A DNA stretch of 64,000 bases from an uncultured Erysipelotrichaceae bacterium (GTDB taxonomy: Bacteria; Bacillota_I; Bacilli_A; RFN20; CAG-826), in assembly GCA_902800905.1 (NCBI GenBank), contig CADCGC010000002.1, forward strand, positions 59,774 through 123,773. The letters run 5' to 3'. The translations under genes were made by a program, and so were the position numbers. Numbering within the stretch: position 1 is the first letter of the stretch; each line of letters starts with the position of its first letter. The notes beneath the pieces were generated by a model. The model had not been told where the DNA came from. It made no database searches and was given only the letters and a program-made list of their open reading frames with translations. Of the stretch, positions 1-61,287 are shown one piece after another.

Positions 1-76
1 AGACCTTTGCTATTCAAGAATATCATTTACCGATATATCACTATATTTGTATGGAATTAGAAAAAAGGATTTGACT

Positions 77-2242: not shown

Positions 2243-2254
2243 TGGAGAAAAGTT

Positions 2255-16703: not shown

Positions 16704-16710
16704 TTAAGTT

Positions 16711-17625: not shown

Positions 17626-17646
17626 TATAAATTGGAGGCCATATTT

Positions 17647-19956: not shown

Positions 19957-21430
19957 TAAAGATAGAATTATTTCTTCAATAGGATTTGTTCTAACTCTTG
20001 TTCTTCCTTCTTGTAATGCAGGACAACTAAATGTCCCTGCTTTTGAGCATGACCCTAATAAGAGAATTCATATTACCGCTTATTCAGGTCCAACAAGAGC
20101 GAAATTAGTTACTCCAACTAGTCCAGAAACCCTTACTGAAGAGCATATGAGAAAAGTCTCTGAAGCAGGCTTTACAAAGATTCTTGCTCTATATGAAGGC
20201 GCTGGTAGACAAGTAGGCAATGATACCTATGAAATCATTGAAAATCTATCCCAAAAAGCGCAAGAGGACGCCTTAATTGCTTTAGACTTAGCGGAACAAT
20301 TTGGCATCAAATACTATGTCAGAGACTGGTCATTTTATGGAATGGTTAAGCAATACGCTGACCCAACATATAACCATCCTGCCATTTTAACTGATGAGCA
20401 ATATGACAAAGTGCTTAAGAAGATGTTCGATGAAAATAACCAATATATCCATCATCCTGCTTACGCTGGTAATTTCTGTCATGATGAGCCGTTTTATAAC
20501 GAGCTTGATCGTATCGCAGTTCAAGTTGATTTATACCAAAAATATATGGCAGAACAAAATGCTTATGGTGAGCCGATTGTTAATCTTTTACCAATGACCG
20601 CTGGCGCAGACGCTTTCAGTGGACATTCATATTATGAATATGTTGATCATTATTTTGATTTAATCGCACCAAAAGTTGGCTTTGTTTCTTATGACTTCTA
20701 TCCATTTAGAGAAGATAAAGATGATGGAAGCTATTTGAAAGATTTATATGTTCCAAACCTTAACCTTATGGCGACAAAATGCAAGGATAACAATATTGAT
20801 TTAAGAACATTTATCCAAGCTGAAGGTGATTTTACCGGAACAAGAAGCATGACTGGTGCGGCTGATTTCAGATTCCAAATCTACACTGAACTTGCCTTTG
20901 GTTCTAAAGAAATTATTTATTATGAATACGCAAATGCGAAGAGCCAGGCAGACCCAGAAGCCGATTATGCTTTATTTAATACTGAAACAGAAGAATATAA
21001 CTGGACATATGACGCTGCAAAACTTGTGAATAATGAAATTCATCAAATCGAAGATGCATATTTGCAATATAAGTGGGATGGTGTTATGTACAAGTGTGCA
21101 AATGAATTAATTGAGAATATTGGTTTCTCTTATCTTAAAGGAGAAAAATATACTTTTACTTCTCATCCACGTGTGAGCATTGAAAATTGTGAACGTGACG
21201 CTCTTATGGGTGTGTTTAAAAACGAAGCAAACGATGATGCGTTTATGCTAGTTAATTACACAGACCCATACTTCAAATTCAACAACAAAGTAACCCTTCA
21301 TTTTAATAATGCAAAAGGATTACTTATGTATCGTCTTGGACAAAAAATGGTGGTTGATCTCCCTTCTAGTGGTAACTATACATTTGATCTTTATCCTGGT
21401 GAAGGAAGATTCATTATTCCAATTAATTAA
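19949..21430 (+). CDS. lipoprotein, uncharacterised conserved enzyme-like family (paralogue 1 of 3, possibly a TIM-barrel glycoside hydrolase-like domain)
   Basis: GGAGG RBS. Lipobox LVLPSC. It shares the blocks ..EAGF.K.L.L(Y/F)EG, NLLP, YFD.IAP.VG(F/Y)VS(Y/F)D.Y, N(I/V)DLRTFI, F(R)FQIY..LAFG(S/A)KEIIYY.Y and W(S/K)WDG with 22878..24068 and with the C-terminal third of 24058..28371. Confidence 0.5.
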   Translation: MNNKDRIISSIGFVLTLVLPSCNAGQLNVPAFEHDPNKRIHITAYSGPTRAKLVTPTSPETLTEEHMRKVSEAGFTKILALYEGAGRQVGNDTYEIIENLSQKAQEDALIALDLAEQFGIKYYVRDWSFYGMVKQYADPTYNHPAILTDEQYDKVLKKMFDENNQYIHHPAYAGNFCHDEPFYNELDRIAVQVDLYQKYMAEQNAYGEPIVNLLPMTAGADAFSGHSYYEYVDHYFDLIAPKVGFVSYDFYPFREDKDDGSYLKDLYVPNLNLMATKCKDNNIDLRTFIQAEGDFTGTRSMTGAADFRFQIYTELAFGSKEIIYYEYANAKSQADPEADYALFNTETEEYNWTYDAAKLVNNEIHQIEDAYLQYKWDGVMYKCANELIENIGFSYLKGEKYTFTSHPRVSIENCERDALMGVFKNEANDDAFMLVNYTDPYFKFNNKVTLHFNNAKGLLMYRLGQKMVVDLPSSGNYTFDLYPGEGRFIIPIN

Positions 21431-21444
21431 AGGAGTTAATCAAA

Positions 21445-22854
21445 ATGAAAAAAGGAAACAAACTTATTGGAACATTGTTATTTAGTTTAGCAATGATTCT
21501 TCCATCTTGTGGTGGAACTCAAGATGACTTCAAAGGCACTTACATTGACTTTGGATTTTTGAAAGCAGGTATTGGCACTGAAGTTTATGAAAAGATCGCG
21601 GAAGCCTACCACACTGAACACCCAGATTACAAAGTCAAACTCCATGCCTCTATTGATATTAACAATATTGCGAAGAACTCATTTGAATCTGGAAAGAATA
21701 TCTATGATATTTATTCTTTAAGACAAAATAACGTTATTACTCAATACTATATCAAAGGATACTTGCTTGATTTAAAGGATGTTGTTTATAACGCTGAAAT
21801 TGCTGATGGAAAAACGCTTTTAGAATTATGTGATGAAAGCGTAATTGAGTATTCAAAATATTCCACAGAGAGAGATGGTGTGGTTGAAGACCACTTTGTC
21901 AGTGTTCCAGAGTTCGTTAATGTTAATGGCTATGTTTATAACAAGAAACTATTTGCACAACACGGATGGAAAGTTCCAAACACTACAGAAGAAATGAAAG
22001 CTCTATGCTTACAAATTGCTGCAGCAGGAATTTCGCCGATTGTTTTCTGTTCACCTAACTCCGCTGATGGATATGTCTATTATCTTTTAAACGGAATTAA
22101 TACTCAGTATGAAGGCATTCAAAATATGAAAGATGCCTATAAGTTTGAAAGTGCAGAAATCTTTAATCCTAGTAATCGTACAGGTAAACTTCACGCACTA
22201 CAAACCTTCAAAGATTTGTACAAGGAATCTAACGGACTAGTTTATCCTAACTCAATCAATATTGACGCTCAAGAAGCACAAAAAGCTTTGCTTTTAGGAA
22301 GAGCAGCAATGATGGTTAATGGTTCTTGGTTTGAAACAGAAATGAGAAAATTCATTGATCCAAGCAAGCATGAATTAGCGATGTTCAAAGTTCCTGAATA
22401 TTCTGAAGACGGAGAAATTCTCCATGCTCCTGGATACACAAACGATGGTAAAGGAATCATCGATAGTGAATATACCGCCGAATATGTTATTCCTACTTTG
22501 GCTCCTCATAAAGAAGCCGCAATCGATTTCTTAAAATTCATGCAAAGACCAGATATTTGTGAACTTTATACAAAGTATAGTAACAATATCCGTCCATTCA
22601 AATATAACAAAAACCCAGAGAGTAGTGTTTATTCAAATATGTCTTCATTTGGTAAAACTGTTTTACAACTCGCAAATGAAAACACACTCTTTGTCGCATC
22701 ATCAAAACATCCAAAATACATTCTTGGTGAAATCTCTTATTGGCCATCAGGTGATAGTGATAGGTATCACACCAATAGACTTCTTAGACAAGACAAAGAA
22801 CCAATTGATTGTTTAGAGGTTGAATATAATAACGCCAAGAAGGTTCTTGGATAG
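21445..22854 (+). CDS. lipoprotein, carbohydrate ABC transporter substrate-binding protein (family-1 SBP, LplA/MalE-like)
   Basis: AAGGAG RBS. Lipobox ILPSCGG. ~470 aa, the size and composition of a cluster-D sugar SBP. It sits between the permeases and the enzyme paralogues. Confidence 0.55.
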   Translation: MKKGNKLIGTLLFSLAMILPSCGGTQDDFKGTYIDFGFLKAGIGTEVYEKIAEAYHTEHPDYKVKLHASIDINNIAKNSFESGKNIYDIYSLRQNNVITQYYIKGYLLDLKDVVYNAEIADGKTLLELCDESVIEYSKYSTERDGVVEDHFVSVPEFVNVNGYVYNKKLFAQHGWKVPNTTEEMKALCLQIAAAGISPIVFCSPNSADGYVYYLLNGINTQYEGIQNMKDAYKFESAEIFNPSNRTGKLHALQTFKDLYKESNGLVYPNSINIDAQEAQKALLLGRAAMMVNGSWFETEMRKFIDPSKHELAMFKVPEYSEDGEILHAPGYTNDGKGIIDSEYTAEYVIPTLAPHKEAAIDFLKFMQRPDICELYTKYSNNIRPFKYNKNPESSVYSNMSSFGKTVLQLANENTLFVASSKHPKYILGEISYWPSGDSDRYHTNRLLRQDKEPIDCLEVEYNNAKKVLG

Positions 22855-22877
22855 ATTAAGAATAGGAAGATTTAACT

Positions 22878-24068
22878 GTGAACAAAGATATTAAATTTGG
22901 CTTTTGGAATTACGCTCCGTTTGGTGTTATTAGTAACAAAGAAGCGGTAAAAGATTGGGTTAATGCTGAATCTAATTTACCGATGAGCTTTGTTTATGAT
23001 TTTCATAACGGAAATAAAGAAGAAATAATTGAACTTCTTGATGAATGCCAAAAGAGCAACTTAAAGTTAATCATTTCTGATACCAGAACTATTTTTAGAA
23101 ATCTTTGTTCAGTCAGTGAAGAACAATTTAGAAAAGACGTTAAAGCGGCGTTTGATGATTTCGGTCATCATCCTGCCGCTTTCGGCTTCTTTGTTGGAGA
23201 CGAACCTTCTCCTGAAGAAACAGATTTATTTATAAAAGCCGTTAAAATTGTTAAAGAAGAAACGCCTGGACTAGTTCCTTTTGGTAATCTTCTTCCATAT
23301 TTTGGAGCAAGTGACCATGTCTTAGACATTGGGAACAAAAACTTTGAATATTATTCCAATCTAGTGGGCAAGATATTAAAAGAAACCGGACTTCCAGTTA
23401 TTGGATACGATCAATATAGCCAGTGCTTAGATGATTTAGGCAATCAAGAAACCGGAATCAATAGCTATTTCATTGGTTTGGACAAATATTATGACTTATG
23501 TAAGAAGAACGATTCTTCCTTCTATATCTCTCTTCTTTCGGTTGGACACTGGATGTATCGCGTTCCAAGTGAAGATGATATTAGATGGCAAATATCGACC
23601 GCTTTTGCTCATGGGGCTAGAGGAGTTATTTGGTTCTATTTCTATCAAGATGATAAAGATTATAGTTATCGCTTATCTCCATTTACAAATTATGGACTCA
23701 AGAAAACTCCGATGTACGATATCGTGAGTCGAGAACAATATCTCTTCAAAAAAACATTTGAAGATCAATTCAACAAAATGGAACTCGTTAATGTTTATCA
23801 TCTAGGCCATATATATGATGAAAACAAAAGATTTGTTTATGACGAATATATCAAAGATGTAATGGTAGATAGAAAACTTCCTGTTATCATTTCGTATTAT
23901 AAAGAATTTAATAGCGACAAAAAGTGGGTTTCATTTGTTAATGGATCTCAAAAATATGCGAGTATTTTAAGAATCACATTTTCTAAAGGACACAAAGAAG
24001 TGTTCTGGCTTGCTCCTGGAGAGATGAGACTATTTGATTTAGACGAGGTTTGCACTAGTGAAGAATAA
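22878..24068 (+). CDS. cytoplasmic paralogue (2 of 3) of the uncharacterised enzyme-like family
   Basis: GTG start and no signal peptide. HHPAAFGFFVGDEP, GNLLPYFG, GYDQY, GARGVIWFYFYQD correspond to the same blocks as in 19949..21430. Confidence 0.5.
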   Translation: MNKDIKFGFWNYAPFGVISNKEAVKDWVNAESNLPMSFVYDFHNGNKEEIIELLDECQKSNLKLIISDTRTIFRNLCSVSEEQFRKDVKAAFDDFGHHPAAFGFFVGDEPSPEETDLFIKAVKIVKEETPGLVPFGNLLPYFGASDHVLDIGNKNFEYYSNLVGKILKETGLPVIGYDQYSQCLDDLGNQETGINSYFIGLDKYYDLCKKNDSSFYISLLSVGHWMYRVPSEDDIRWQISTAFAHGARGVIWFYFYQDDKDYSYRLSPFTNYGLKKTPMYDIVSREQYLFKKTFEDQFNKMELVNVYHLGHIYDENKRFVYDEYIKDVMVDRKLPVIISYYKEFNSDKKWVSFVNGSQKYASILRITFSKGHKEVFWLAPGEMRLFDLDEVCTSEE

Positions 24069-27000
24069 AACCATATCTATTTTGTTTTTAGGAGTTATTG
24101 GAGTTGTCGCATCTGCGATAGCTTTATCGCACTCTCATGATGTTGCTTTAGCTAGTGGAACGGATGAACATTCAAGTTCATGCACCTGGAATCACTATTT
24201 AAGAGTTGAACCGACATATGAAAATGATGGAATACAAGAATATTATGTCTGCTGTTCTCATCATGAAAGCGTTCTAGAAAGACCAACACTTGGGACAATC
24301 GTTGATAAAGGCACTCCATCCTCTTCTTTTATCAGTGGTTTAGAAGATAATGATTTCAGATTAATTCCTTCATATCGAAAACAAGTTAAACCAGTTCAAG
24401 ATGAAATTGATGGGCTTTCTGAGGCGTTTAAGATATCTGATGGCAGTCAAATTGATAAAGCATATAACCTTTATAACAACACTAGTGAAGAGCTTAAAAC
24501 CTATGTTAATGATGTTTCAAAATTAGAAGGCATTTATGAGAGATACCACGAATCATATGATGTTCTTATCGATACAGTTAATAATGAATATCAATCAAAG
24601 ATATATAATTCGAATTATGATGTTGAACCAGTTTTAAATGAAAACGCTGGATATTGTTCTTCTTTTACTAATATCACTCCAACTGATGACAACTGGATTG
24701 GTTTTGGCACTTCAAAGACCACAAATATTTCAAACTATAGCGAGATATTGCTCTATGTATATAGCAACCTAAATTTCGATTGTGATTTTGATGTTAGGTA
24801 TTCTGGTAGCACTTTTGACTTAACAAACAAAGTTAAAGTTTATTCTAAATCATGGAGTGAAATAACAATTCCTCTTTCAACATTTATAACAAATCAATTG
24901 AAAGACTTATTTGTTGGTACATGGATTAGTGATGCTAGATATAACACTTTTGAGAATGGGTTTTTATTCTCTTCGCTTTACGGCGTTAAAAAGATTACTA
25001 CCCCAAGTAGAACATATATTGATTTGTCTGATGATCAAAAGACCACTGACACAGTCAACTTTGTTGGTGACAAATATATTGAAGACGTGAATTATGCAGC
25101 CTTTGTTTATTCTCCTGCTTATTCTGCTTCACTTGGAAAAGTTAACTTTATTACCACTCAACCATATAGCAACGTCACCTCTGTTAGTTTTGATGCGAAG
25201 ATCGATGGAACGGCGACAGGATGGTGGGGTATTGGCCACTCAACCTCTATTGAAAACGCAAGAATATATAACGGAATGTGCACAACCGGTGTCAAAAACA
25301 CTCAAAACGAATTCCAACATATCGCAATTAATGTTAGTGTAACTGACCCGGAATACATTTACTTTATTTTTGAAGTTGGAACATTTACTAAAAATGTCTA
25401 TATCGATAATGTCACTATCGTTAGTGGTGGAGTTGAATACACTGATGATTTTGATAGCGGTTCTTCAGCCTTATTTAATAATTCTTCATCAGTTTTAGGA
25501 AATGCAGTTAGCATTCAATTAATCAGTAGCGATGCTAAATTCTTATCACGTTCAGTAAAAGACTACTATGTTGAAGTTAGTCCATATAATTACGATACTT
25601 CGACATTATATACACGTTCATCTTATACAGGTGTTTATAAGGTTTCTTATGACGCAAAAGTTGATGGAACAATTGTTAATAATCTTTCAAACAATGAACA
25701 AATTTGGTGGGGTTTTGGTGTTACTGATGACCCAACAAACGTTTACTCTGGACTTCAATTTGTTAGAGAAGTGCTATCTACTGATAATGAATGGAAACAT
25801 TTTGAATATGAGATTCAAACTCCAGTTGATGGATATGTTCACTTTGTGTTCAATCCATTAAAGACGAATGTTCCTGTTCTTTTAGATAACATTACTTTCT
25901 TTACTGAAGGTAGTGTCTTTGTTGAAAACTTTACTGATGGGCTATCCACTTTATTTAATGTTGGCGCTCATCTTGATATTAAGAAGAAGAGCGACCCATC
26001 AATTACCTTCAATGGTGGAATTAACGCCTCAGAAAAAGACTATTCTGTCTTAATGGATATTTATAATTATGGCAACGTTTCTGGCAATGAAGCGACATTT
26101 AAAACAAAAGTTCCATATAACAACGTTACGAGTATCTCCTATGATATGAAGATTGATGGGACCATAACATTTACAAACACAGATCCATATTGGGTTGGTG
26201 TCGGTCATGACGCAAATCAAAACGCTAGTATCTATAAAGGACTTAGAACATCTAACACATTTACTACTAATGATGGTTGGATGAGATTTACATATACATT
26301 CTCTGGACTAGGCTTAGAATATTTCTTCTTTGTTTCTAATCCTGTTCACGCCCATAACAATGTTTATTTTGACAATGTCATTATTGTTAGTGATGGAGTG
26401 GAATACACTGATACATTTACCAACGGAAAGAGCGAACTATTTAATTTAGGTTCTTATGTTTCTTTACATTTTGAATCAGAAAGCATGACCGATGAAATTG
26501 CCTATAATGTATTAACAGAGAGTCAATGCTATTTTGAAGGTCCTCAATTTGTTAGAGATAATTTAGAAAATTATGAAGCCTTAGTGTATGGCTCTATTGC
26601 TCATCAAATTACAGGACAAGGAAGGTATGCGATTCTTATTTATAATGATTTGAATGTTGCGGAATATTTATTTGTTGATGATGAATATATTTCTTACTGT
26701 TCTAATACTTCAATAATTAATGCCACGTCTTATAATGGGCAGTCTTATAACATCAGTGTTTCAGTAGATGGAAGAATAACAATTAACAATCAGATTCTCG
26801 CTATTTCTAGTGGAGTTAATGATTCACTTAAATTTGTGTCGTTCTTTAGCCAAGGTTCGGTTGTCTTTACTGATATTTCTTTAGATTCAACTTATAGAGA
26901 AATTCATACTTCTGAAACAATTGATGGAATAGAAGTTCCTTACTTATATTCAGAAGATAATATTGTGTTTAACGCATATGGTTCTCCAACAGTTGCCGAT

Positions 27001-28371
27001 TGGAATGGTGTGAAAGATAGTAACCCAACTATGGCGACTGATGAAATCTTCCAAGATTACTATGACGCTGGATTTAGAAAGTGCTTGCCACTTTTTGAAG
27101 GACGAACTGGAGCAAGATATGACTTCAATACTTATTATGATTTGTATCTTGAAGCAACTGGTTCGCAAAAAGAATCATACAAAAACCAATGTATCCAAAA
27201 ACTCGACATTATTTGTGAAAAAGCCGACAGAGACGCGATGGAAATAATGTCTGTTGCCTCTAAATATGGAATTAAATATATTGTTCTTAATTCAATTATT
27301 TTTGAACTAATTGGACAAACTACTCCAAACGGAAACAATATTCAGATTGAAGATTATCCATGGATTTTTGATCGTGTCTTTAGAGATGACAGCGAATATT
27401 TCTATCAAGTTCAATACGTTGGTAACTTTATGCAAGATGAACCAATTGGTGTTGAAGGACTTGAAAGATTATATGCGGCTGTTGTTTTGTATTATCAATA
27501 TACAGCGGCTTTAGGAATTGAAAGTGAACCTGTTATTAATCTACTTCCTGGAAACTACACGGATAATAATTATGTCGCTTATCTTGATTATTATTTTGAA
27601 CATATTGCTCCTCTTGTTGGATATGTTAGCTTTGACCAATATGTCTTACAAGTTTCTAATGGCACTTATTCAGTGAAGTCCACACACTTATCTAACTTAT
27701 ATTTATTAGCCTCACGAGCAAAACAATATAATGTCGATTTAAGAACGTTCATTTTCCCAAGATGTCAGGATGAGGGAAGTAATAGAGGCATTACAATGGC
27801 GGATGAACTAAGGTTCCAAATTTACGCCAATTTGGCTTTTGGTGCTAAAGAAATCATCTATTATGGTTATACAACTCATAACAGCACAAATGAAACAGAA
27901 GGTCTTGTTAATATGTATACCGGAGAGAAGAGCGATGTATATTACTACGCTAAAGAAGTTAATAACGAAGTATTATCTTTCGGTCAAGCATATATGCATT
28001 TCTCATGGGATGGAATTATTGGTAAAGACACTGGTGGGTGGCTAAGTAAAAATACCTGCCTAACTCAATTAAGTAAACTTAATTCGATGAATAGTCACGC
28101 TGGATTATCATCTTTCTCTGTTAATAAGAACTCACTCATTGGTTGCTTCAAAGATAGTGATTCTCAATACGCATATATTCTTATGTATTATGGCGATCCA
28201 AAAACCGCAAGTGGAACAGACACAATTCAATTAACTTTCTTAGACAAATATAATGGCGTTATTGTTTATCAAAACGGTGGAAAACACGCTTATCGAATTG
28301 ATAATCATAAGCAATCTATTACTCTTAATCCTGGTTGTGGAGCGTTTGTTATCCCGGTAACTTTAAATTAG
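24058..28371 (+). CDS. 1437-aa surface protein with an N-terminal anchor, a Cys/His mini-module, 3-4 WWGFG beta-sandwich (CBM-like) modules, and a C-terminal enzyme-like domain (paralogue 3 of 3)
   Basis: GTG start overlapping the upstream gene. N-terminal hydrophobic segment ILFLGVIGVVASAIAL. The repeats and the C-terminal homology (NVDLRTFIFPRCQDEG..ELRFQIYANLAFGAKEIIYYGY..YMHFSWDG) are read directly from the translation. Confidence 0.6.
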   Translation: MKNKTISILFLGVIGVVASAIALSHSHDVALASGTDEHSSSCTWNHYLRVEPTYENDGIQEYYVCCSHHESVLERPTLGTIVDKGTPSSSFISGLEDNDFRLIPSYRKQVKPVQDEIDGLSEAFKISDGSQIDKAYNLYNNTSEELKTYVNDVSKLEGIYERYHESYDVLIDTVNNEYQSKIYNSNYDVEPVLNENAGYCSSFTNITPTDDNWIGFGTSKTTNISNYSEILLYVYSNLNFDCDFDVRYSGSTFDLTNKVKVYSKSWSEITIPLSTFITNQLKDLFVGTWISDARYNTFENGFLFSSLYGVKKITTPSRTYIDLSDDQKTTDTVNFVGDKYIEDVNYAAFVYSPAYSASLGKVNFITTQPYSNVTSVSFDAKIDGTATGWWGIGHSTSIENARIYNGMCTTGVKNTQNEFQHIAINVSVTDPEYIYFIFEVGTFTKNVYIDNVTIVSGGVEYTDDFDSGSSALFNNSSSVLGNAVSIQLISSDAKFLSRSVKDYYVEVSPYNYDTSTLYTRSSYTGVYKVSYDAKVDGTIVNNLSNNEQIWWGFGVTDDPTNVYSGLQFVREVLSTDNEWKHFEYEIQTPVDGYVHFVFNPLKTNVPVLLDNITFFTEGSVFVENFTDGLSTLFNVGAHLDIKKKSDPSITFNGGINASEKDYSVLMDIYNYGNVSGNEATFKTKVPYNNVTSISYDMKIDGTITFTNTDPYWVGVGHDANQNASIYKGLRTSNTFTTNDGWMRFTYTFSGLGLEYFFFVSNPVHAHNNVYFDNVIIVSDGVEYTDTFTNGKSELFNLGSYVSLHFESESMTDEIAYNVLTESQCYFEGPQFVRDNLENYEALVYGSIAHQITGQGRYAILIYNDLNVAEYLFVDDEYISYCSNTSIINATSYNGQSYNISVSVDGRITINNQILAISSGVNDSLKFVSFFSQGSVVFTDISLDSTYREIHTSETIDGIEVPYLYSEDNIVFNAYGSPTVADWNGVKDSNPTMATDEIFQDYYDAGFRKCLPLFEGRTGARYDFNTYYDLYLEATGSQKESYKNQCIQKLDIICEKADRDAMEIMSVASKYGIKYIVLNSIIFELIGQTTPNGNNIQIEDYPWIFDRVFRDDSEYFYQVQYVGNFMQDEPIGVEGLERLYAAVVLYYQYTAALGIESEPVINLLPGNYTDNNYVAYLDYYFEHIAPLVGYVSFDQYVLQVSNGTYSVKSTHLSNLYLLASRAKQYNVDLRTFIFPRCQDEGSNRGITMADELRFQIYANLAFGAKEIIYYGYTTHNSTNETEGLVNMYTGEKSDVYYYAKEVNNEVLSFGQAYMHFSWDGIIGKDTGGWLSKNTCLTQLSKLNSMNSHAGLSSFSVNKNSLIGCFKDSDSQYAYILMYYGDPKTASGTDTIQLTFLDKYNGVIVYQNGGKHAYRIDNHKQSITLNPGCGAFVIPVTLN
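25138..26450 (+). repeat. three tandem ~140-aa beta-sandwich modules (V(S/K)(F/Y)DAK(I/V)DGT....WWG(I/F)G....(I/V)Y.G......W.....(Y/F)..........F.F......V.(I/L/F)DN(V/I).....G.....E.FT.G.S.LFN)
   Basis: The three copies end in VYIDNVTIVSGGVEYTDDFDSGSSALFN, VLLDNITFFTEGSVFVENFTDGLSTLFN and VYFDNVIIVSDGVEYTDTFTNGKSELFN. Confidence 0.65.
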
Positions 28372-28391
28372 TTTAGTAAGGAGTTGGTTTT

Positions 28392-30677
28392 ATGAAAAAA
28401 TCATTTATTTTATCCGCATTAATTCTAAGTCTTTCTCTTTTGAGTGGCTGCACAAGTAATTCCGATAGTGGAGGTGGAGGAGGAGATCCTATTGACCCAG
28501 AAGAACAATGTGAACATAGTTATAAATATCACCAAAAGGTTGAAGCCACTTGTACTGAAGATGGAAACGAAGCATATTTTTCATGTTCCAATTGCGACAA
28601 GATTTTTAACGAAAAGAAGCAAGAAACCCCATATTCTGAACTTGTTATCCCTGCCTTGGGACATGATATTGGACACGTTAATGCGACAACTCCACGCAAT
28701 TGCTTGGAACTAAGTGTCATTGAACATTATCACTGTAGTAGATGTGAAAAGAACTTTGAGGATGAAGCCGCTACTATTGAACTCGATTCAATCGATGGAT
28801 ATTATGGTGAGCATAATTTCGTTGATTACCCTGCCAAAGCCGCTTCTTGCGCTGAAGAAGGGAACATTGCCTATGCCGAATGTTCTTATTGCCATAAAAT
28901 ATATTCAATTGATCATCAAACCCAGATTACTGACGGTTCATATATTATTGAAAAAACACAACACCATTTGACACATCATGAAGCTGTTCAATTTGAAAAT
29001 ATTGAATATTGGGAATGCTCTGAATGTGAAAAAAAATTCTCTGATGAAGACGGAGGCGAAGAAGTGGAAAATGTTTCTATTCGTGATGAACACGATTTAT
29101 TAAATGATAATGTTAAGAATTATCTTGCCGCGACTACTGAAGCAGATCAAATCAATGCTTTAAGAGTATCAACTCCATTTAATAATCAAGTTAGAAAAGT
29201 CCTTTCATGGAAAACTAATGATAATGGACCATACACTATTGAAGTCTCTGAGAGCCAAGATTTTACCAATCCTATGACATTTACTGCTTCTAATTCACCA
29301 TTAACTCTTCCTGGAACATTATTCCCAGGACATACATATTATTGGAGAGTAAAAGATAGTTCTGATCAATTAGTAGTGACCATTGAAAGATTTATTGTTG
29401 ATGGCACTTATCCAGTTAGAACTCTATTCGTTGATGGAGTCTCTAATGTTAGAGACGCTGGAGGATGGACTGCTAAAGACGGAAACAAAGTCCTTTATGG
29501 AAAAATCATTAGAGGTGGAAGATTAAGAGATATCACTGAGGATGGCAAAAAAACATTCTTAGAAGATTTAGGCATTAAAACCGAACTTGATTTAAGAGGC
29601 GATGGTGTAAGTGATATTTCTGATTCTAGACTCACATATATCAAGCAAGGACTTAACCAATACACAATGCTAGTTCCTAATTATCTTTCTCCTATCGTTC
29701 AAGGAAAAGGTGATTTAAGATATGGGTTTGACACCACAACTCCTAATGCGCTAGCGGCAATTTTCAATGTCTTAGCCGATTCCTCTAATTATCCAATTTA
29801 TTATCACTGCAATGCTGGAGCAGATAGAACCGGTTCATTAACTTATTTAATCAATGGTCTTCTTGGTGTTTCTTATGAAGATTTAACAAGAGATTTTGAA
29901 TTAACAACATTCTCTGCTCAAGGAAACAGATTCCGTAGTGGTGTTAGTGGAAATAGTTTTGTTTCTACTGGTGAGATGGCAGGAATCTATGAATGTGACT
30001 CCCTTAACTATGTCGCTTGGGGAAAACTTCACGAGCTTATTTCCACCAATTACGCGCAAGAAAACGGACAATTATGTTCGGCGATTGAATATTATTTGAA
30101 GAAAGTTTGTAAGATTTCTGATGAAACAATTAAACAAGTTAGAAGAAACCTCTTAGGAAAAGATGTTGAATTTGATGAAGTGGTTGTGGAAGACGAAAGC
30201 ACAGTGTTTACTCCTGAAAATGGTAACCAGACATTAGCAAATCAAATAGAATATGAAAAAGGTAATTTCTTCGGTAAATTGTCCTATAAGTTCACTGCCT
30301 ATACTCCAACTGGCCAAGGCAAAGTTGACCACTATATTTATCATAATTTAGATATTATTAATAATCCTGCCTACACAAAATTCCATTTTGATGTCTATGT
30401 TCCAGCGACAAGTGCAAAGTGGAACACAAGTGAAGGAAAAGATACTGGAGCAAGATTTGCAATCTCCGCAAAAGCTTCATCGACTACACGTATTGAATTT
30501 AGTGATGAATTCTCTTCATCATCTACTAATAAATACAAGATTATTACTGATGAGTGGATGACTTTTGAAATTGAGATTTCTCAGTTTAGTAATCTCATTC
30601 GTTTTGCGTTCTATTTGCCTTATGCTACTGAGCAAATTCCAGCGATAGTGTATTTTGCAAACGTCCACGTTTCTTAA
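28392..30677 (+). CDS. lipoprotein with N-terminal Cys/His-rich repeats, an FN3-like segment, a CX5R protein-tyrosine-phosphatase-fold domain (Y_phosphatase3/Siw14-like) and a C-terminal beta-sandwich
   Basis: Lipobox LSLLSGCTS followed by a Gly5 linker. Repeated C.H..Y.....A(T/S)C.E.GN.AY..CS.C.K.(F/Y). The PTP-domain entry is NVRDAGGW...LYG..IRGGRL, and the P-loop is HCNAGADRTG at about 29804-29833. Confidence 0.6.
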   Translation: MKKSFILSALILSLSLLSGCTSNSDSGGGGGDPIDPEEQCEHSYKYHQKVEATCTEDGNEAYFSCSNCDKIFNEKKQETPYSELVIPALGHDIGHVNATTPRNCLELSVIEHYHCSRCEKNFEDEAATIELDSIDGYYGEHNFVDYPAKAASCAEEGNIAYAECSYCHKIYSIDHQTQITDGSYIIEKTQHHLTHHEAVQFENIEYWECSECEKKFSDEDGGEEVENVSIRDEHDLLNDNVKNYLAATTEADQINALRVSTPFNNQVRKVLSWKTNDNGPYTIEVSESQDFTNPMTFTASNSPLTLPGTLFPGHTYYWRVKDSSDQLVVTIERFIVDGTYPVRTLFVDGVSNVRDAGGWTAKDGNKVLYGKIIRGGRLRDITEDGKKTFLEDLGIKTELDLRGDGVSDISDSRLTYIKQGLNQYTMLVPNYLSPIVQGKGDLRYGFDTTTPNALAAIFNVLADSSNYPIYYHCNAGADRTGSLTYLINGLLGVSYEDLTRDFELTTFSAQGNRFRSGVSGNSFVSTGEMAGIYECDSLNYVAWGKLHELISTNYAQENGQLCSAIEYYLKKVCKISDETIKQVRRNLLGKDVEFDEVVVEDESTVFTPENGNQTLANQIEYEKGNFFGKLSYKFTAYTPTGQGKVDHYIYHNLDIINNPAYTKFHFDVYVPATSAKWNTSEGKDTGARFAISAKASSTTRIEFSDEFSSSSTNKYKIITDEWMTFEIEISQFSNLIRFAFYLPYATEQIPAIVYFANVHVS
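28510..29040 (+). repeat. three to four Cys/His-rich ~40-aa repeats, possibly small metal-binding modules
   Basis: CEHSYKYHQKVEATCTEDGNEAYFSCSNCDKIF; NCLELSVIEHYHCSRCEKNF; ASCAEEGNIAYAECSYCHKIY; EYWECSECEKKF. Confidence 0.5.
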
Positions 30678-30700
30678 TTAGATATTACTAAATTATCATA

Positions 30701-30731
30701 GGGGAATTCGTTAATGAATTCTCCTTTTTTG
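30701..30731 (+). terminator. strong rho-independent terminator ending the 15-kb operon
   Basis: GGGGAATTC-gttaat-GAATTCTCC followed by TTTTTTG. Confidence 0.7.
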
Positions 30732-30822: not shown

Positions 30823-31188
30823 ATGCAAATACAATGGTTTAGTTCGAAGGAAAAAGTTGGAACAGCGTCCTTCTATAACACGAACATTACATTAAACACA
30901 ATCGCCTCAGTTCCATTTGAATATGCATATCGTGTTCAAGTTGGTTTAGATGAGCAAGGAAATGTAGTTGTTAGACCGTTAACGAAGGAGAAAGTTCAAA
31001 GCGGTGATTTGGACGAATATACCATTTTGCAAATGTCTGTCAAAAAGACCTATTCTAGAATCTCATCAACAATGTTGATGAAAAGAATTTCAGAGGCGTT
31101 AGGTATTACGTTATCTGATAAGCCAGTTAAGTTTGATACAACCTGGGATGAAGTAGAAAATATTCTCACTATTCATATCAAGAAATAG
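30823..31188 (+). CDS. hypothetical soluble protein (121 aa) upstream of flotillin
   Basis: Good RBS and promoter. No recognisable motif. It is not NfeD-like. Confidence 0.4.
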   Translation: MQIQWFSSKEKVGTASFYNTNITLNTIASVPFEYAYRVQVGLDEQGNVVVRPLTKEKVQSGDLDEYTILQMSVKKTYSRISSTMLMKRISEALGITLSDKPVKFDTTWDEVENILTIHIKK

Positions 31189-34581: not shown

Positions 34582-36108
34582 ATGAAAAAATTATTAGGCG
34601 TGCTTGCCATTGGTTTAGCGTGCGCAATGTTAGCTGCATGTAACCAAGGTGGTACTCCATCGCAACCAGTCGATAAAGACAAGATTCTCGAAGTTGCGGA
34701 TTTTGAACAATTTTCAGTCGTTGGTCAACACCAAATCGAAGTAGATGGTGAAGATGTCGCAAACGAATGGAAAGTCAAAGACTACAACGTCATGAGAGCT
34801 GTTTCTTTAAATCAATTGGCAGCAATGGATTCAGCATTAGAAGCAAAAGTTGAAGCTAAAGGCGTTAGAGGCCTTTATGTCTTAGAAGGCGTTGTCCTTG
34901 GCGCTAATGATGCTGGATACGACAAAACCAGACCTGAAGGCGAAGAAATCGTTACTGTTAACGGTTCTTATACATTCAAGGTTTGTGGTGATGAATTAGA
35001 TGATGAAGAAGTTTGGCAAAGAGCCACTCACTATCCATCAGCTGAAGCTCACGGTGAATCCTTAACCGACAACTTATGGATTACAGAAAACATGACCGCT
35101 ACAATCGATGATAACGGTTATGACCACAATACAGACCCAGTTGCTAAAGCCGCTGGCGCTTACACTGTTGTCTTTGCTCTTTACAAAGCACCTCAAGGTC
35201 CAATGAGCCTCTCCTGTGGTATCGGTTTAATTAAAACTGGCGACAGAGATCCATACGTTGCACCAGAAACATATCCAGTCGAAAAACTCGAAGTTATCGG
35301 TGGATTCAATGATTGGTCAGATGACACTGCTCTTGAAATGGCCAAGAACGAAAACACATTCACTGCTCAATTAGTTTTAGAAGCAGCTTCTGAAATCAAA
35401 ATCAGAGCTAATGGTGAATGGAAGAGATCATTCGGTAAACAAGCCTTAGAAGGCAAAGTAGTTGGCGGAAACGATGACAACATCGCTTTAGGCGCTGCTA
35501 CATGGAACATTTCTATTACATTATCTTCTTGTGATGATTTACAAGTTGGTGATGAAATCGTCGCATTCACAATCGAAGCTGAAGGCGAAGTCGCAAAGAA
35601 CCCAGTCGAATCAATGGACGTTGCTGGTGGATTCAATAGTTGGAATCCAGGTGAAGATGACAAATTAGCAAAAGACGGCAATACATTTTCTGGTGACATC
35701 GCATTAGCAGAAGCTGGCGAAGTTAAAGTCAGAGTTAACTGCGATTGGACAATCGCTTTAGGCGCAACCGCTCTTGAAACAAAAGTCGTTACAGGTAACG
35801 ATGGCAACATCGCATTAGAAGCTGGCGAATACACTGTTACAGTTACATTTGCTGCTGATGATATGGAAGACATCGCTGTTGGCGCTGAACTCGTTGCTTT
35901 CACAATCGAAGCAAAAGGCGCTGCAGATCCAAAAGGTTCACAAAACAACCCATACACAGTTGCAGAAGCTTTAGCAGAAATCATGAAATTAGAAGATGGT
36001 AAAAAATCATCTGATAGATTCTATGTTTCTGGTGTTTGCACAGAATTCGTTAAAACTTCGTTAGTGGTGGAAACGTTACTCCAGAAATGGCAAGTGGAAC
36101 AAATTTAG
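34582..36108 (+). CDS. surface lipoprotein with two tandem starch/glycogen-binding-like modules (SusE/SusF-like role, inferred)
   Basis: Lipobox LAACNQG. Two ~110-aa repeats begin (I/V)(I/V)GGFN(D/S)W...NG.W. They resemble the GSFNNW-type CBM20/25/26/48 starch-binding modules. The gene lies directly upstream of the amylase and pullulanase genes. Confidence 0.5.
   Translation: MKKLLGVLAIGLACAMLAACNQGGTPSQPVDKDKILEVADFEQFSVVGQHQIEVDGEDVANEWKVKDYNVMRAVSLNQLAAMDSALEAKVEAKGVRGLYVLEGVVLGANDAGYDKTRPEGEEIVTVNGSYTFKVCGDELDDEEVWQRATHYPSAEAHGESLTDNLWITENMTATIDDNGYDHNTDPVAKAAGAYTVVFALYKAPQGPMSLSCGIGLIKTGDRDPYVAPETYPVEKLEVIGGFNDWSDDTALEMAKNENTFTAQLVLEAASEIKIRANGEWKRSFGKQALEGKVVGGNDDNIALGAATWNISITLSSCDDLQVGDEIVAFTIEAEGEVAKNPVESMDVAGGFNSWNPGEDDKLAKDGNTFSGDIALAEAGEVKVRVNCDWTIALGATALETKVVTGNDGNIALEAGEYTVTVTFAADDMEDIAVGAELVAFTIEAKGAADPKGSQNNPYTVAEALAEIMKLEDGKKSSDRFYVSGVCTEFVKTSLVVETLLQKWQVEQI
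35287..35925 (+). repeat. two tandem ~110-aa repeats (GGFNxW ... VVGGNDxNIAL ... VAFTIEA)
   Basis: VIGGFNDWSDDTALEMAKNENTFTA...IVAFTIEAEGE and VAGGFNSWNPGEDDKLAKDGNTFSG...LVAFTIEAKGA. Confidence 0.6.
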
Positions 36109-36152
36109 TTTCCGTTACACCAAAAAACGCATAATTTATCATAAACATTTAT

Positions 36153-36183
36153 GGGAGGTTTTTTAAACCTCCCTATTTGTTTA
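36153..36183 (+). terminator. rho-independent terminator between the starch-binding and amylase genes
   Basis: GGGAGGTTT-ttt-AAACCTCCC followed by TATTTGTTT. Confidence 0.65.
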
Positions 36184-36253
36184 ATTGGGCATCTAGAACC
36201 AATTAAAGAAATATATTTAATAAAAGTTATTATTTTTAATAAGGATTTTATAT

Positions 36254-38263
36254 ATGTCTAGAAAACTTTTAGCTCTATTACCTGTTTGTTTAATTTTTAG
36301 CGCGTGTACGGGCGAGCAGCCTTTACCAGAACCAACAGGTGAAAAGAAGTACGTCGATGTACAACTTAGCGACATCTCTACAAAAGATGGAAATATTTTC
36401 CATGCTTTCTGTTGGAAATTTAGCGATGTTACCGCTAACCTAGCGTCAATTGCAGAACAAGGATTTAAATCTGTTCAAATTTCTCCAGTTCAACAACCAA
36501 AATCTGGTGGACCAAACTGGTGGAGTTTTTATCAACCACTTTCTTTCTCTATCGCTGATAACTCTACTCTTGGAACAAAAGATGACTTAATTGAGATGTG
36601 CGCAGCTGCGGATAGATATGGAATTTCTATCATCGCTGATATTGTTTTCAATCACTTAGCAAACATTGATGAAAAACATTTAGAAGCAGATGGAACCCCA
36701 ACTGTTTCTCCAAGTGTTGAAGCGTATGAACCAGAAATCTACGCGAAAAGAAACGCTAGCGGAGAAGAAGCGACTTTCCACCACAATACAAAAGCTACTG
36801 GAAGTGGAGCGATTACACAAAATTATCCTTATGGTGCATTACCTGATTTAAATACCGCTCATCCACTTGTTCAACAAAGAAGCTTAGATTTACTTAAAGA
36901 ATGTATCGATGTTGGTATCGATGGATTTAGATTAGATGCCGCTAAACATATTGAGACTCCTACCGATCCTGAATACGCTAGCGACTTCTTCCCAAATGTC
37001 ATTGATGCTGCAAAAGCATATTACAAAACCAAAACAAATAAAACTGATGAAGATCTTTATGTTTATGGTGAAATCTTAGATGATGTTCAAGGCGGAAGAA
37101 CAATTGATGATTATCTTCCATATATGGATGTCACTGATAACCAAACAAGAGATGCTTATATTCGTTCAACAGTTAGCAAAGATTGTTCTTTAACTGTGAC
37201 TGCAAAATATGAAAAGAACTGTGATCCTAGCCATATCGTTGTTTGGGGAGAATCCCATGATGACTATTGCAACGCTGGCACAGTTCCTGCTGCTGTCCAA
37301 GTCAATAGAGTGTGGGCGATGATGATGGCAAGAAAAGGTGCGAAAGGCTTATATCTTGCTAGACAAGCAAATAGAGATAATCTTACTGTTGCGCAAGTAG
37401 GTTCTTATACATTTGAAGAACCAAGTGTCGCAGTTATGAATAAATTCCATTATTGCTACAAAGATGTCGATGATTTTGTTTCTTCTCAACAAGAAATCTA
37501 CATTTGTGAGAGATATGATGAAGAATTCACAAATAGTCACGCCGCTGTTATCGTTGACACCACAAAGAACGTAGTGGCAGGCGGAAAAGATGTCACCTTC
37601 AAGAAAATCTCTGATGGCAAATATTATGACCAAATGACTGGCAAAGAAGTCGTCGTTAGAGGTCATAGAGCTCATATTGATTTCGGTGATTCAAATATTT
37701 GTGTTCTTACAACTACTGAAAATATGGCTCGACCATTTGTCAAAGTGTCTAATCGTGGTGGTTCATTTGTTGATTCATTAAAAGTTATTGTCAATTTACA
37801 AGATGCGACAGGAACATATCAAATCAATAACAAGGCCGCTGTCGACTTATCCGCTACAACTGAAATCACTATCAGAGCATCTGACGCAGTTGATGGAGTC
37901 ATTACTCTCAAATTAGCGTACGGCAACGAACAATATAGTTACCAAAGAGAATTCAAATATCGTTCAGTCACCCTTATTGAAGGATACTTTAATGTTATTA
38001 ATTTGAATTCTAGATATTTTACTGAAAATGAAATCTATCTTTGGTCTTGGGGAGTAAGTAAAGGCCAATGGAGTAAGAATTACACCGTAAGAGATGGCGT
38101 TCTCTTAATCGATTTAAATACATTCACTGATACATCATTCCTTATTGCTTTATTTGAAAAAGGATATGAAATTACTAATTTAACAAAATGGGATGACAAC
38201 TCATTAAAACAATCAAAAGATCTCGCAATTAAAGACAAGTTCTTTGATGCGACAGGTTTCTAG
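36254..38263 (+). CDS. lipoprotein alpha-amylase (GH13)
   Basis: Lipobox IFSACTG. GH13 regions FHAFCWKF, IADIVFNH, GFRLDAAKHIE (nucleophile region), GEILD and VWGESHD. Confidence 0.85.
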   Translation: MSRKLLALLPVCLIFSACTGEQPLPEPTGEKKYVDVQLSDISTKDGNIFHAFCWKFSDVTANLASIAEQGFKSVQISPVQQPKSGGPNWWSFYQPLSFSIADNSTLGTKDDLIEMCAAADRYGISIIADIVFNHLANIDEKHLEADGTPTVSPSVEAYEPEIYAKRNASGEEATFHHNTKATGSGAITQNYPYGALPDLNTAHPLVQQRSLDLLKECIDVGIDGFRLDAAKHIETPTDPEYASDFFPNVIDAAKAYYKTKTNKTDEDLYVYGEILDDVQGGRTIDDYLPYMDVTDNQTRDAYIRSTVSKDCSLTVTAKYEKNCDPSHIVVWGESHDDYCNAGTVPAAVQVNRVWAMMMARKGAKGLYLARQANRDNLTVAQVGSYTFEEPSVAVMNKFHYCYKDVDDFVSSQQEIYICERYDEEFTNSHAAVIVDTTKNVVAGGKDVTFKKISDGKYYDQMTGKEVVVRGHRAHIDFGDSNICVLTTTENMARPFVKVSNRGGSFVDSLKVIVNLQDATGTYQINNKAAVDLSATTEITIRASDAVDGVITLKLAYGNEQYSYQREFKYRSVTLIEGYFNVINLNSRYFTENEIYLWSWGVSKGQWSKNYTVRDGVLLIDLNTFTDTSFLIALFEKGYEITNLTKWDDNSLKQSKDLAIKDKFFDATGF

Positions 38264-38272
38264 GAGGCAAAT

Positions 38273-41032: not shown

Positions 41033-41038
41033 AAACAT

Positions 41039-41455
41039 ATGAGTAAAAGCGTAGTCAGAACATATCCACTTAAAGGACTATCAATCTTCCTATCCGTTGT
41101 TATTGTCCTCTCAATCGGACTATCAATTGGTATTGTGTTCATAGAAGACCTCTTAGTATTAAGAATTGTTATCTGGGTATTTTCTGGGATCTTCGCAATT
41201 ACATCAATTGTCGTCTTATTAAAAGAAGCGATTATCTACTTGTCTTTTGATGAAGAAAGCGAGATTCTCACTTCTCACGAATTCATAATAAGACGCAAGA
41301 TACCGCTAACAAAGATTAGCCGTATCGAAGTTAAAGATGGTTTCTATGTCTTCTATTCAGGGAAACAAAAAATCTACACTCTTGGGGCAGATCGCCCTAA
41401 TGCTAATGAATTAGCCCTGGCGTTAGAAAGACATAAAATAAAAATTAAATGGTAA
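41039..41455 (+). CDS. small membrane protein with two TM helices and a bacterial PH-like (YdbS/DUF304-type) C-terminal domain
   Basis: Two hydrophobic helices, then LSFDEESEILTSHEFIIRRKIPLTKISRIEVKDGFYVFY, typical of bPH_2 proteins. Confidence 0.4.
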   Translation: MSKSVVRTYPLKGLSIFLSVVIVLSIGLSIGIVFIEDLLVLRIVIWVFSGIFAITSIVVLLKEAIIYLSFDEESEILTSHEFIIRRKIPLTKISRIEVKDGFYVFYSGKQKIYTLGADRPNANELALALERHKIKIKW

Positions 41456-41480
41456 AAATTTTAGTAAAAGGAGGCTATTT

Positions 41481-43358: not shown

Positions 43359-43365
43359 TTAATTT

Positions 43366-44172: not shown

Positions 44173-44182
44173 GGAGGTTCAT

Positions 44183-45586: not shown

Positions 45587-45624
45587 TTAAACAATAATTC
45601 TTTTTAGAAGAAAGGAGGAATTAT

Positions 45625-59744: not shown

Positions 59745-59747
59745 AAC

Positions 59748-61163: not shown

Positions 61164-61287
61164 AGTGAATTCCCCCCTAGAAAACACCATAAAATTATAA
61201 CATTTCCTCCTTATCTTTTATATAGAAAGTCTTATTATTTTATCTTTGTCTTGGAATTATCTTTTTTTGATACAATAATAGTTGCGT

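Follow-up and report, generated by a model that had tools for sequence, protein, structure and literature searches.

A gene at positions 28392..30677 (+ strand) of a 64,000-nucleotide stretch of DNA from an uncultured Erysipelotrichaceae bacterium (contig CADCGC010000002.1 of assembly GCA_902800905.1, positions 59,774 to 123,773 of the forward strand; hereafter the window) encodes a predicted surface lipoprotein of 761 residues with a protein tyrosine phosphatase (PTP)-fold domain, as read from the open reading frame (ORF), Pfam and an AlphaFold2 model. We tentatively propose that this protein is a cysteine-based phosphomonoesterase of surface glycans or oligosaccharides, working like the glucan phosphatases laforin and SEX4 but lying outside the laforin family. 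The proposal builds on the domain architecture of the protein, the conservation of its catalytic residues, its membership in an operon and a family-wide association with sugar-uptake loci; among its parts, the carbohydrate nature and the identity of the substrate are what we infer most of all.

The catalytic domain spans residues 347-588 (29430..30155, +) and was delimited by Pfam, Foldseek and profile searches against the PDB. It matches Pfam Y_phosphatase3 (PF13350) with an E value of 8.3e-29 and 101.7 bits against a cut-off of 22.2, over profile positions 3-239 of 240; NCBIfam offered no model for the protein. In a Foldseek search of the PDB, the domain was closest to the Clostridioides difficile PTP (8dhj/8dhi, E = 1e-8) and then to Mycobacterium tuberculosis MptpB (PtpB; 1ywf, 7.5e-7), with a probability of 1.0, and the family profile aligned with 8dhi over its full length (E = 1.8e-22). 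A first-pass annotation, made by a model from the sequence alone, had pointed out an NVRDAGGW / LYG..IRGGRL entry motif ahead of the P-loop. This motif is indeed present (NVRDAGGW...LYGKIIRGGR, 29445-29522), and translation places the invariant P-loop HCNAGADRTG at 29805..29834 (+), one base away from the earlier estimate of about 29804-29833. The domain had also been described as Y_phosphatase3, Siw14 or PFA-DSP type. Only the first assignment holds: Y_phosphatase2 (PF03162, the Siw14/PFA-DSP family) scored 21.9 bits, under its cut-off of 27, and Siw14 (6byf, 141 aligned columns) and AtPFA-DSP1 showed a remote fold likeness at Foldseek E values of ~4e-4 to 1e-3. PTPlike_phytase gave no Pfam match at E up to 0.1 and was absent among the PDB sequence and fold matches listed, the window protein had no match to Pfam DSPc, and the family profile did not reach the laforin, SEX4 or LSF2 chains of the PDB at E up to 1.

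The P-loop provides Cys473 as the nucleophile, Asp478 as the putative acid/base, Arg479 as the phosphate clamp and Ala477 at the site held by a lysine in the atypical lipid phosphatases (ALPs). The first-pass annotation had called for a check on the conservation of the catalytic cysteine and arginine and of the general-acid aspartate. Cys473, Arg479 and the P-loop Asp478 are invariant both in 81 homologues (down to ~34% identity) and in a set of 26 sequences (down to 23%), together with H472, G476, A477, T480 and G481 of the loop and with N352, R354, D355, R374, D400, R402, D501, E503, R513 and R515. Among the P-loops found in 120 retrieved homologues, 121 of 121 read HCxxGADRTG. Because Cys473, Asp478 and Arg479 do not vary, we predict an active enzyme rather than a binding module; judged by sequence, conservation of these residues across thousands of clusters speaks strongly against the inactive module that had been raised as an option, and the enzyme looks active.

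We consider such a dead carbohydrate- or phosphate-binding module very improbable, and likewise a true protein tyrosine phosphatase whose substrates would be proteins of the surface or of a host. The exterior of a gut commensal offers no obvious phosphotyrosine substrate, bacterial tyrosine kinases are cytoplasmic, and the genomic context of the gene lacks pointers to signaling. A role on proteins would nevertheless agree with public annotation, which names relatives "tyrosine-protein phosphatase," and with MptpB, which dephosphorylates proteins too (PMC3091653).

The general acid is most plausibly Asp478. MptpB, Lmo1800 and LM1 all depend for catalysis on an aspartate at loop position 6 (PMC3091653), and we make this assignment by analogy because the family keeps the aspartate that the ALP literature shows to be catalytic. 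Mapping the general acid through Asp82 of MptpB was tried and rejected: the alignment is poor there, the window protein reads GLNQYT at this place and 8dhi also has no aspartate in the printed alignment.

ALPs are defined by the P-loop HCXXGKDR[TA]G, in which the lysine at position 5 is strictly conserved (PMC3091653). Measured against this definition, the family retains the catalytic aspartate at position 6 (the invariant Asp478) but not the lysine, which is an alanine in the window protein and in all 121 homologue loops. Because the ALP lysine is replaced by alanine without exception, the sequences define a distinct Y_phosphatase3 subfamily outside the strict ALPs. Additionally, the subfamily has a specific motif, DFELT...GNRFRS (29892..29939, +), that contains the invariant D501, E503, R513 and R515; in the printed alignment, 8dhi shows nothing equivalent to E503, R513 or R515. 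The family signature thus consists of an obligate FN3-like domain, the HCxxGADRTG loop and DFELT...GxRxRS.

The same residues bear on a further reading, which we consider improbable: that the protein belongs with MptpB and LipA as an atypical lipid (phosphoinositide) phosphatase and takes its substrates from the inositol-phospholipids or glyco-inositol-phospholipids of plants, protozoa or fungi. In favor of this, the solved structures nearest to the protein are those of MptpB and of the ALP-type C. difficile PTP (loop HCTAGKDRTG), and the catalytic aspartate at loop position 6 is kept. However, the diagnostic lysine, which is important for phosphoinositide binding, is invariantly alanine; replacing this lysine by alanine in Lmo1800 and LM1 led to a major loss of activity on phosphatidylinositol 3,5-bisphosphate, and ~10% was left on phosphatidylinositol 3-phosphate (PMC3091653). 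Furthermore, no lipid-metabolism genes recur among the neighbors, save for lipase genes beside one homologue.

The gene is preceded by a ribosome-binding site read from the sequence (AAGGAG, 28379..28384, +, 7 nt 5' of the ATG). The protein starts with MKKSFILSALILSLSLLSGC-TSNSDSGGGGGDP, that is, two lysines, a hydrophobic core, the lipobox L-S-G-C with Cys20 and five glycines. Its lipoprotein signal peptide (residues 1-20; 28392..28451, +), MKK-SFILSALILSLSL-LSGC, agrees with the pattern [LVI][ASTVI][GAS]C within the first ~35 residues that marks bacterial lipoproteins. Cys20 is kept in at least 90% of the 81 homologues, and 104 of the 120 homologues retrieved have a lipobox-like N terminus. 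Residues 21-38 (28452..28505, +) form a flexible linker of serine, the Gly5 run, proline and acidic residues, according to both the sequence and the AlphaFold2 model. This model, built on the 81 homologues, has a mean predicted local distance difference test (pLDDT) of 91.8 and falls below 50 across residues 14-38, leaving the linker disordered. The description of the product as an exported lipoprotein carrying a PTP-fold CX5R domain was thus borne out, the lipobox, the Gly5 run and Pfam Y_phosphatase3 all being present. The cell being that of a monoderm rumen Bacillota bacterium, the enzyme is predicted to sit on the outside of the cytoplasmic membrane and to face outward.

Between the linker and the catalytic domain, motifs and the model outline four Cys/His-rich beta-hairpin repeats (residues 39-232; 28506..29087, +) of roughly 45-54 residues, each closed by CSxCxKx[F/Y] (residues 65-72, 115-122, 164-171 and 209-216). 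Their copy number differs between homologues and they match no Pfam model. In the model they look like zinc ribbons, and together they probably form a stalk. A degenerate copy of the repeat (CTWNHYLRVEPTYENDGIQEYYVCCSHH) was seen by eye near the N terminus of the 1437-aa protein encoded just upstream (~24160-24290), where a repeat hidden Markov model (HMM) missed it. The repeats are followed by a helical segment and an FN3-like beta-sandwich (residues 236-345; 29097..29426, +), drawn from the alignment and the model. A segment of at least 80 residues occurs here in 80 of 81 aligned sequences, P312 and R343 are invariant in the 81 homologues, and the equivalent region of homologues matches Pfam Pur_ac_phosph_N and fn3. 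By sequence, the catalytic domain of the family has this module as its obligate companion. Behind the catalytic domain, Foldseek on the model recovered a C-terminal beta-jelly-roll (residues 602-761; 30195..30674, +) with a fold like those of carbohydrate-binding module (CBM) families CBM4, CBM22 and CBM27. Its matches were the CBM4 modules of CelK (3p6b) and CbhA (3k4z), CBM22 4xup, CBM27 1of4 and XG34, at E values of 1e-3 to 7e-3 and probabilities of 0.92-1.0. Close homologues carry one to four copies of the jelly roll.

The phosphatase gene is the last of eight co-directional genes (15804-30677, +) that are separated by at most 23 bases or overlap slightly. The run begins with two ATP-binding cassette (ABC) sugar permeases (15804-16703 and 16711-17625, both +), followed by a 774-aa unknown protein (17632-19956, +), a 493-aa lipoprotein resembling glycoside hydrolase (GH) clan GH-A (19949-21430, +), a solute-binding protein (21445-22854, +), a 396-aa GH-A-like protein (22878-24068, +) and a 1437-aa protein with a GH-A-like C terminus (24058-28371, +). 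A terminator-like hairpin in the sequence, with an 11-bp stem and a T run, closes the operon (30700..30725, +). The permeases, the solute-binding protein and the GH-A-like proteins confirm the glycan-utilization operon described in the first-pass annotation. Indeed, the run shows what is expected of a Gram-positive polysaccharide-utilization locus (PUL), namely, co-directional and tightly spaced genes for an ABC sugar transporter, a solute-binding protein and glycosidase-like proteins. The identical operon was found in three independent cattle-rumen metagenome assemblies.

To place the family in its genomic context, we counted neighbors at 73 homologue loci with a callable ORF from species-representative genomes. 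The phosphatase gene stood in a co-directional run with carbohydrate genes at 31 of the 73 loci and shared its run with ABC sugar permeases at 22 (30%). By comparison, a permease run was shared by 15 of 484 (3%) other genes of the same loci taken from outside the phosphatase's run, which corresponds to an odds ratio of 13.5 (Fisher p = 4e-12), and the carbohydrate link claimed for the window thereby gains family-wide support. A divergent AraC regulator lay directly upstream of the phosphatase at 18 of the 73 loci, and a gene of the GH-A-like family was part of the run at 9. This latter family has only 186 detectable matches and no Pfam model, yet it adjoins the phosphatase in 9-12 loci. Other recurrent neighbors were GH95, GH38 with DUF6259, DUF4838 and GH78.

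In a neighbor-joining tree, at least five clades are associated with sugar loci, each with its own layout: divergent AraC, phosphatase, solute-binding protein and two permeases; GH-A-like, phosphatase, GH38 and DUF6259; solute-binding protein, two permeases, phosphatase and GH-A-like; DUF4838, two unknown genes and phosphatase; and a glycosyltransferase family 2 (GT2)-HAD protein followed by the phosphatase. A Clostridia metagenome-assembled genome (MAG; locus L023) has an operon syntenic with that of the window, comprising a GH78-like gene, two permeases, homologues of the 774-aa and 493-aa proteins, a solute-binding protein, GH-A-like proteins, a 396-aa homologue and GH95. The phosphatase of this operon lies in its middle rather than last and, at 36% identity, falls into another clade. 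From this synteny with a phosphatase of another clade it follows that operons of this type either gained a family member on two occasions or retained one while being extensively reshuffled.

Several loci merit separate description. Eighteen species-level genomes (the L034-L080 group, e.g., L066:9770-21109) have in common a conserved locus with a divergent AraC gene, a long phosphatase (856-1963 aa), a putative solute-binding protein of ~584 aa, two permeases, an unknown protein of ~1000 aa and DUF4838; GH95 often lies upstream, and the large proteins of the locus are for the most part unannotated. The recurrent 584-aa neighbor matches weakly a model for the substrate-binding protein of carbohydrate ABC transporters, and the recurrent 1000-aa and 1009-aa neighbors had no significant matches in Pfam, NCBIfam or the PDB. 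In one clade (loci L032, L055, L062 and L065), the phosphatase directly follows a ~1030-aa fusion of a GT2 glycosyltransferase with a HAD hydrolase, itself preceded by a ~1950-aa protein, within ~1-10 kb upstream of the phosphatase; this context looks biosynthetic, related to the cell envelope, rather than catabolic. The organism labels of several MAG records are implausible. A locus labeled "Escherichia coli" (L070) shares the gene layout of one labeled "uncultured Mollicutes" (L066), and L074, L012 and L059 are Bacillota-type loci under the names "Parasutterella," "Bacteroidaceae" and "Paludibacteraceae." Mistakes in binning or labeling are the probable cause.

We propose the following mechanism. 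The lipid anchor at the N terminus, the flexible linker and the four-repeat zinc-ribbon-like stalk would tether the enzyme at the membrane, while the C-terminal CBM-like jelly roll, possibly together with the FN3-like domain, would hold the carbohydrate substrate. By analogy with PTP-fold enzymes, the thiolate of Cys473 would attack a phosphate monoester bound by Arg479 and the P-loop backbone, Asp478 would serve as the acid/base like Asp165 in MptpB, and hydrolysis of the phospho-cysteine intermediate would release inorganic phosphate. In this way, phosphate groups would be stripped from an extracellular phosphorylated oligo- or polysaccharide. The neighboring glycosidase-like surface lipoproteins could then cut the glycan and the co-encoded ABC transporter could import the neutral products, a role comparable to that of laforin and SEX4 on glucans or of sulfatases and esterases in the PULs of Bacteroidota. 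The enzymes encoded nearby, GH95, GH78-like, GH2, GH112 and GH130, with GH38 elsewhere, would fit heteroglycans of host type, of plants or of microbes.

A number of observations weigh against a role on glycans. We know of no phosphorylated glycan that matches the set GH95, GH78-like, GH2, GH112 and GH130. The 73 loci behind the permease enrichment are not phylogenetically independent, one clade of 18 giving most of the permease cases. The assignment of the C-terminal domain as CBM-like is a fold similarity in a model, at E values of ~1e-3, and HMMs of the C-terminal, FN3-like and Cys-repeat modules run against all ORFs of the window matched the phosphatase alone, so that the proteins of the operon have no targeting module in common. 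In most of the closest full-architecture relatives (~40-55% identity), the gene is a solitary one surrounded by unrelated or housekeeping genes, for instance those for rpoA, tRNA synthetases, BipA, lipases or a metallophosphatase. Among these relatives, only the window lineage and L086 adjoin carbohydrate-active enzymes (CAZymes), L086 having GH28 and a carbohydrate esterase family 15 (CE15)-like gene immediately 5' of the phosphatase in a region syntenic with the window at 3.5-13.5 kb. A glycan-operon context conserved in orthologues was thus rejected for the nearest clade, with its mostly stand-alone genes, and kept for the wider family. Finally, the characterized Y_phosphatase3 enzymes act on proteins, phosphoinositides and phytate, not on glycans (PMC3091653, PMC6409689).

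Part of this evidence would suit a broad-specificity or phytase-type surface phosphatase that acts on soluble organic phosphates (inositol hexakisphosphate from feed, free sugar phosphates or nucleotides), setting free inositol, sugars or phosphate, and whose place in the operon would be incidental. We rate this as unlikely, yet as an alternative to be taken seriously. The solitary position of the closest relatives among housekeeping genes is what one would expect of a general-purpose enzyme, and the invariant R354, R374, R402, R513 and R515 could accommodate poly-anionic substrates. The rumen receives much phytate, and ruminal anaerobes secrete PTP-fold phytases. In addition, Pho16B, another Y_phosphatase3 enzyme, acts on all ten substrates on which it was assayed, phytate among them (PMC6409689). 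However, several clades of the family are strongly enriched in ABC sugar operons, the CBM-like and adhesin-like modules suggest a polymeric substrate, no Pho-regulon genes are found among the recurrent neighbors, and the PTP-like phytase family is not matched in Pfam. Moreover, rumen fluid is rich in phosphate, which makes phosphate scavenging an unlikely driver.

Returning to the dephosphorylation of glycans, the window protein is one of many in a large family. A profile search of 1.84 billion cluster representatives returned 2,647 proteins at E ≤ 1e-30, or ~2,650 clusters at 50% identity. In one-genome-per-species collections, 389 relatives were confirmed, nearly all in uncultured gut and rumen Bacilli and Clostridia, and genomes often hold three or four paralogues placed in different sugar loci. 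The minimal unit comprises a lipobox, the FN3-like domain and the PTP domain in ~400-440 aa, and longer members gain Cys repeats, one to four jelly rolls or very long unannotated regions. In a first sample of long homologues (789-1962 aa), most had no recognizable additional Pfam domain; a second sample contained rare fusions to CBM_4_9 with Big_2, to Flg_new repeats and to a calcineurin-like metallophosphoesterase. With slightly less confidence than for the window protein itself, we suggest that these ~2,650 clusters, combining an FN3-like domain with a Y_phosphatase3 domain bearing HCxxGADRTG, may form a large class of cell-surface glycan phosphatases that serve as regular accessory enzymes of Gram-positive carbohydrate loci.

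Three fusion proteins are described here individually. One (P0287) joins a genuine CBM_4_9 domain and five Big_2 repeats to the PTP domain. Another (P0363) consists of a calcineurin-like metallophosphoesterase, FN3, three Flg_new repeats and the PTP domain, and could couple a diesterase with a monoesterase. The third (P0054), from a Thermoguttaceae (Planctomycetota) genome, has three FN3-PTP units in tandem.

Another oxyanion ester could also be the target, either through a cysteine-based glycan sulfatase or through a monoesterase that takes over once a phosphodiesterase has acted on teichoic-acid-like or phosphoglycan polymers. We judge this a slim possibility for the window protein, and slimmer still, at best, is the idea that some members of the family hydrolyze sulfate esters or finish the breakdown of phosphodiester-linked polymers. 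The P-loop has only one basic residue, and GH112, GH130, GH95 and GH2 nearby fit host-type glycans, which are often sulfated. The metallophosphoesterase fusion of P0363 and another member with a divergent metallophosphoesterase neighbor fit a diester-to-monoester route, but these two cases are the whole of the metallophosphatase link. In addition, the CX5R(T/S)G geometry of the loop is fully of the phosphate type, its catalytic aspartate is retained, and we know of no natural PTP-fold sulfatase.

The GH-A-like proteins of the operon were analyzed as well. The C-terminal third of the 1437-aa protein (26905-28371) is paralogous to the 396-aa and 493-aa proteins, which are also paralogues of each other. 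The model of the 493-aa protein (pLDDT 92.9) shows a TIM barrel and a beta-sandwich, nearest to PslG/GH39, GH140, GH51 and GH164 at ~10% identity. Its family has an invariant D179-E180-P181 that ends a barrel strand and no obvious invariant glutamate at the site expected for the clan GH-A nucleophile; the adjacent Asp-Glu pair is reminiscent of substrate-assisted hexosaminidases. Going by this model, the 493-aa-type proteins are an unclassified glycosidase-like family, and they could represent a new GH family. None of the 774-, 396-, 493- and 1437-aa proteins of the window matched Pfam or NCBIfam, and the 493-, 774- and 1437-aa proteins had no significant sequence matches in the PDB. The N-terminal 900 residues of the 1437-aa protein comprise three or four similar beta-rich modules with ends of the type ...V(Y/L)(I/L/F)DN(V/I)T(I/F)..., and these may be uncharacterized carbohydrate-binding repeats ahead of the GH-A-like domain.

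Upstream of the operon, the window encodes GH95, GH78-like and GH2 (the nearest), a MalK-type ATPase, GH130 and GH112. The GH112 lacto-N-biose/galacto-N-biose phosphorylase and the GH130 mannoside phosphorylase lie at 47-3247. Past the operon terminator, a 121-aa ORF (30823-31188) without a family match is annotated as a gene in each of the three metagenome copies. Downstream lie a flotillin gene, a potassium-channel gene and then a starch cluster (34582-48116) that encodes a protein with faint matches to both SusE/F and CBM, a pullulanase-like GH13 enzyme with CBM48 and a second GH13 enzyme, as well as a MalK ATPase, two permeases and a solute-binding protein. A pair of genes for an F420-ligase-like protein and a flavin adenine dinucleotide (FAD)-dependent protein is found at 58551-61190 (-), ~28 kb from the phosphatase. 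The same pair occurs in a related genome at L003:493-3104, only ~7 kb from a 53%-identical phosphatase (P0009). Because these distances differ (~28 kb versus ~7 kb), the phosphatase or its surroundings have been rearranged between relatives. Searches of the window for tRNAs and Rfam families found nothing.

Since exported Y_phosphatase3 proteins and carbohydrate-directed PTP-fold enzymes are both known already, the window protein does not represent an enzyme of a new kind. The features that look new are the subfamily signature, the size of the family and its systematic placement in Gram-positive sugar-uptake loci. In the searchable literature we found no description of the HCxxGADRTG subfamily or of a PUL-linked PTP-fold enzyme, and for Gram-positive bacteria of the gut and rumen, neither CAZyme catalogues nor predicted PULs include a phosphatase component. 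If glycans are indeed dephosphorylated at the surface, this would add an accessory activity to models of how Bacillota break down fiber, host glycans or microbial glycans. It would also imply an unrecognized pool of phosphorylated carbohydrates, a significant class of gut and rumen nutrients, and give a function to thousands of metagenome proteins annotated as "tyrosine-protein phosphatase." The phosphatase also flags the GH-A-like family, the 774-aa protein and the ~1000-aa proteins as one degradative system and so offers a handle on several unknown families. If the enzyme were a general phosphatase or phytase instead, it would still be a new and abundant type of rumen phosphatase, of possible relevance to animal feed.

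Among known phosphatases, the ALPs (MptpB, Listeria LipA/Lmo1800 and the C. difficile PTP 8dhi/8dhj) share the Y_phosphatase3 family and fold with the window protein and likewise have the NxRDxGG entry motif, a DLR motif, an HCxxGxDRTG loop and the aspartate at loop position 6. Unlike the ALPs, with their lysine at loop position 5, the window family invariably has alanine, and it adds the N-terminal FN3-like domain, DFELT...GxRxRS, the lipid anchor and CBM-like or adhesin-like modules. It is also found in the sugar-uptake loci of gut commensals and not in virulence contexts. The first-pass annotation had called extracellular PTP-fold enzymes unusual, which overlooks exported members of Y_phosphatase3: MptpB is secreted (PMC3091653) and Pho16B, from a soil metagenome, has a predicted signal peptide (PMC6409689). 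Pho16B resembles the window protein as a predicted exported Y_phosphatase3 enzyme of an environmental bacterium with non-protein substrates, 10 of 10 tested being used (PMC6409689). It differs in that its loop is the ALP one with lysine and its signal peptide a plain one; it consists of a single domain, lacks FN3-like and CBM-like modules, and has no reported link to a sugar operon.

In laforin, SEX4 and LSF2, a PTP-fold CX5R phosphatase is joined to a carbohydrate-binding module, much as the window protein joins one to a jelly roll of CBM-like fold. These glucan phosphatases strip phosphate monoesters from polysaccharide so that glycosidases can proceed (PMC9254107, PMC3162602). However, they belong to the dual-specificity phosphatase branch of the PTP superfamily, with an upstream D-loop aspartate, their modules are CBM20 or CBM48 instead of a CBM4/22-like jelly roll, and they work on starch or glycogen within eukaryotic cells or plastids. 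In contrast, the operon of the window has no GH13, although the starch cluster lies 4-10 kb downstream. The start of the laforin loop resembles the HCNAG of the window P-loop. PTP-like phytases such as Selenomonas ruminantium PhyA are, like the window protein, secreted PTP-fold CX5R enzymes of the rumen that act on a non-protein phosphate ester, but they form a separate Pfam family without the FN3-like domain or the lipid anchor and with another loop composition. Lastly, the phosphatases of the Bacteroides thetaiotaomicron yeast-mannan PULs (BT2630 and BT3783) and PUL sulfatases are accessory enzymes that clear away an anionic decoration and thereby open the glycan to glycosidases. Their folds and mechanisms are unrelated to those of the window protein, and they work in the periplasm of diderm bacteria, where import relies on SusC/D and not on a Gram-positive ABC transporter.

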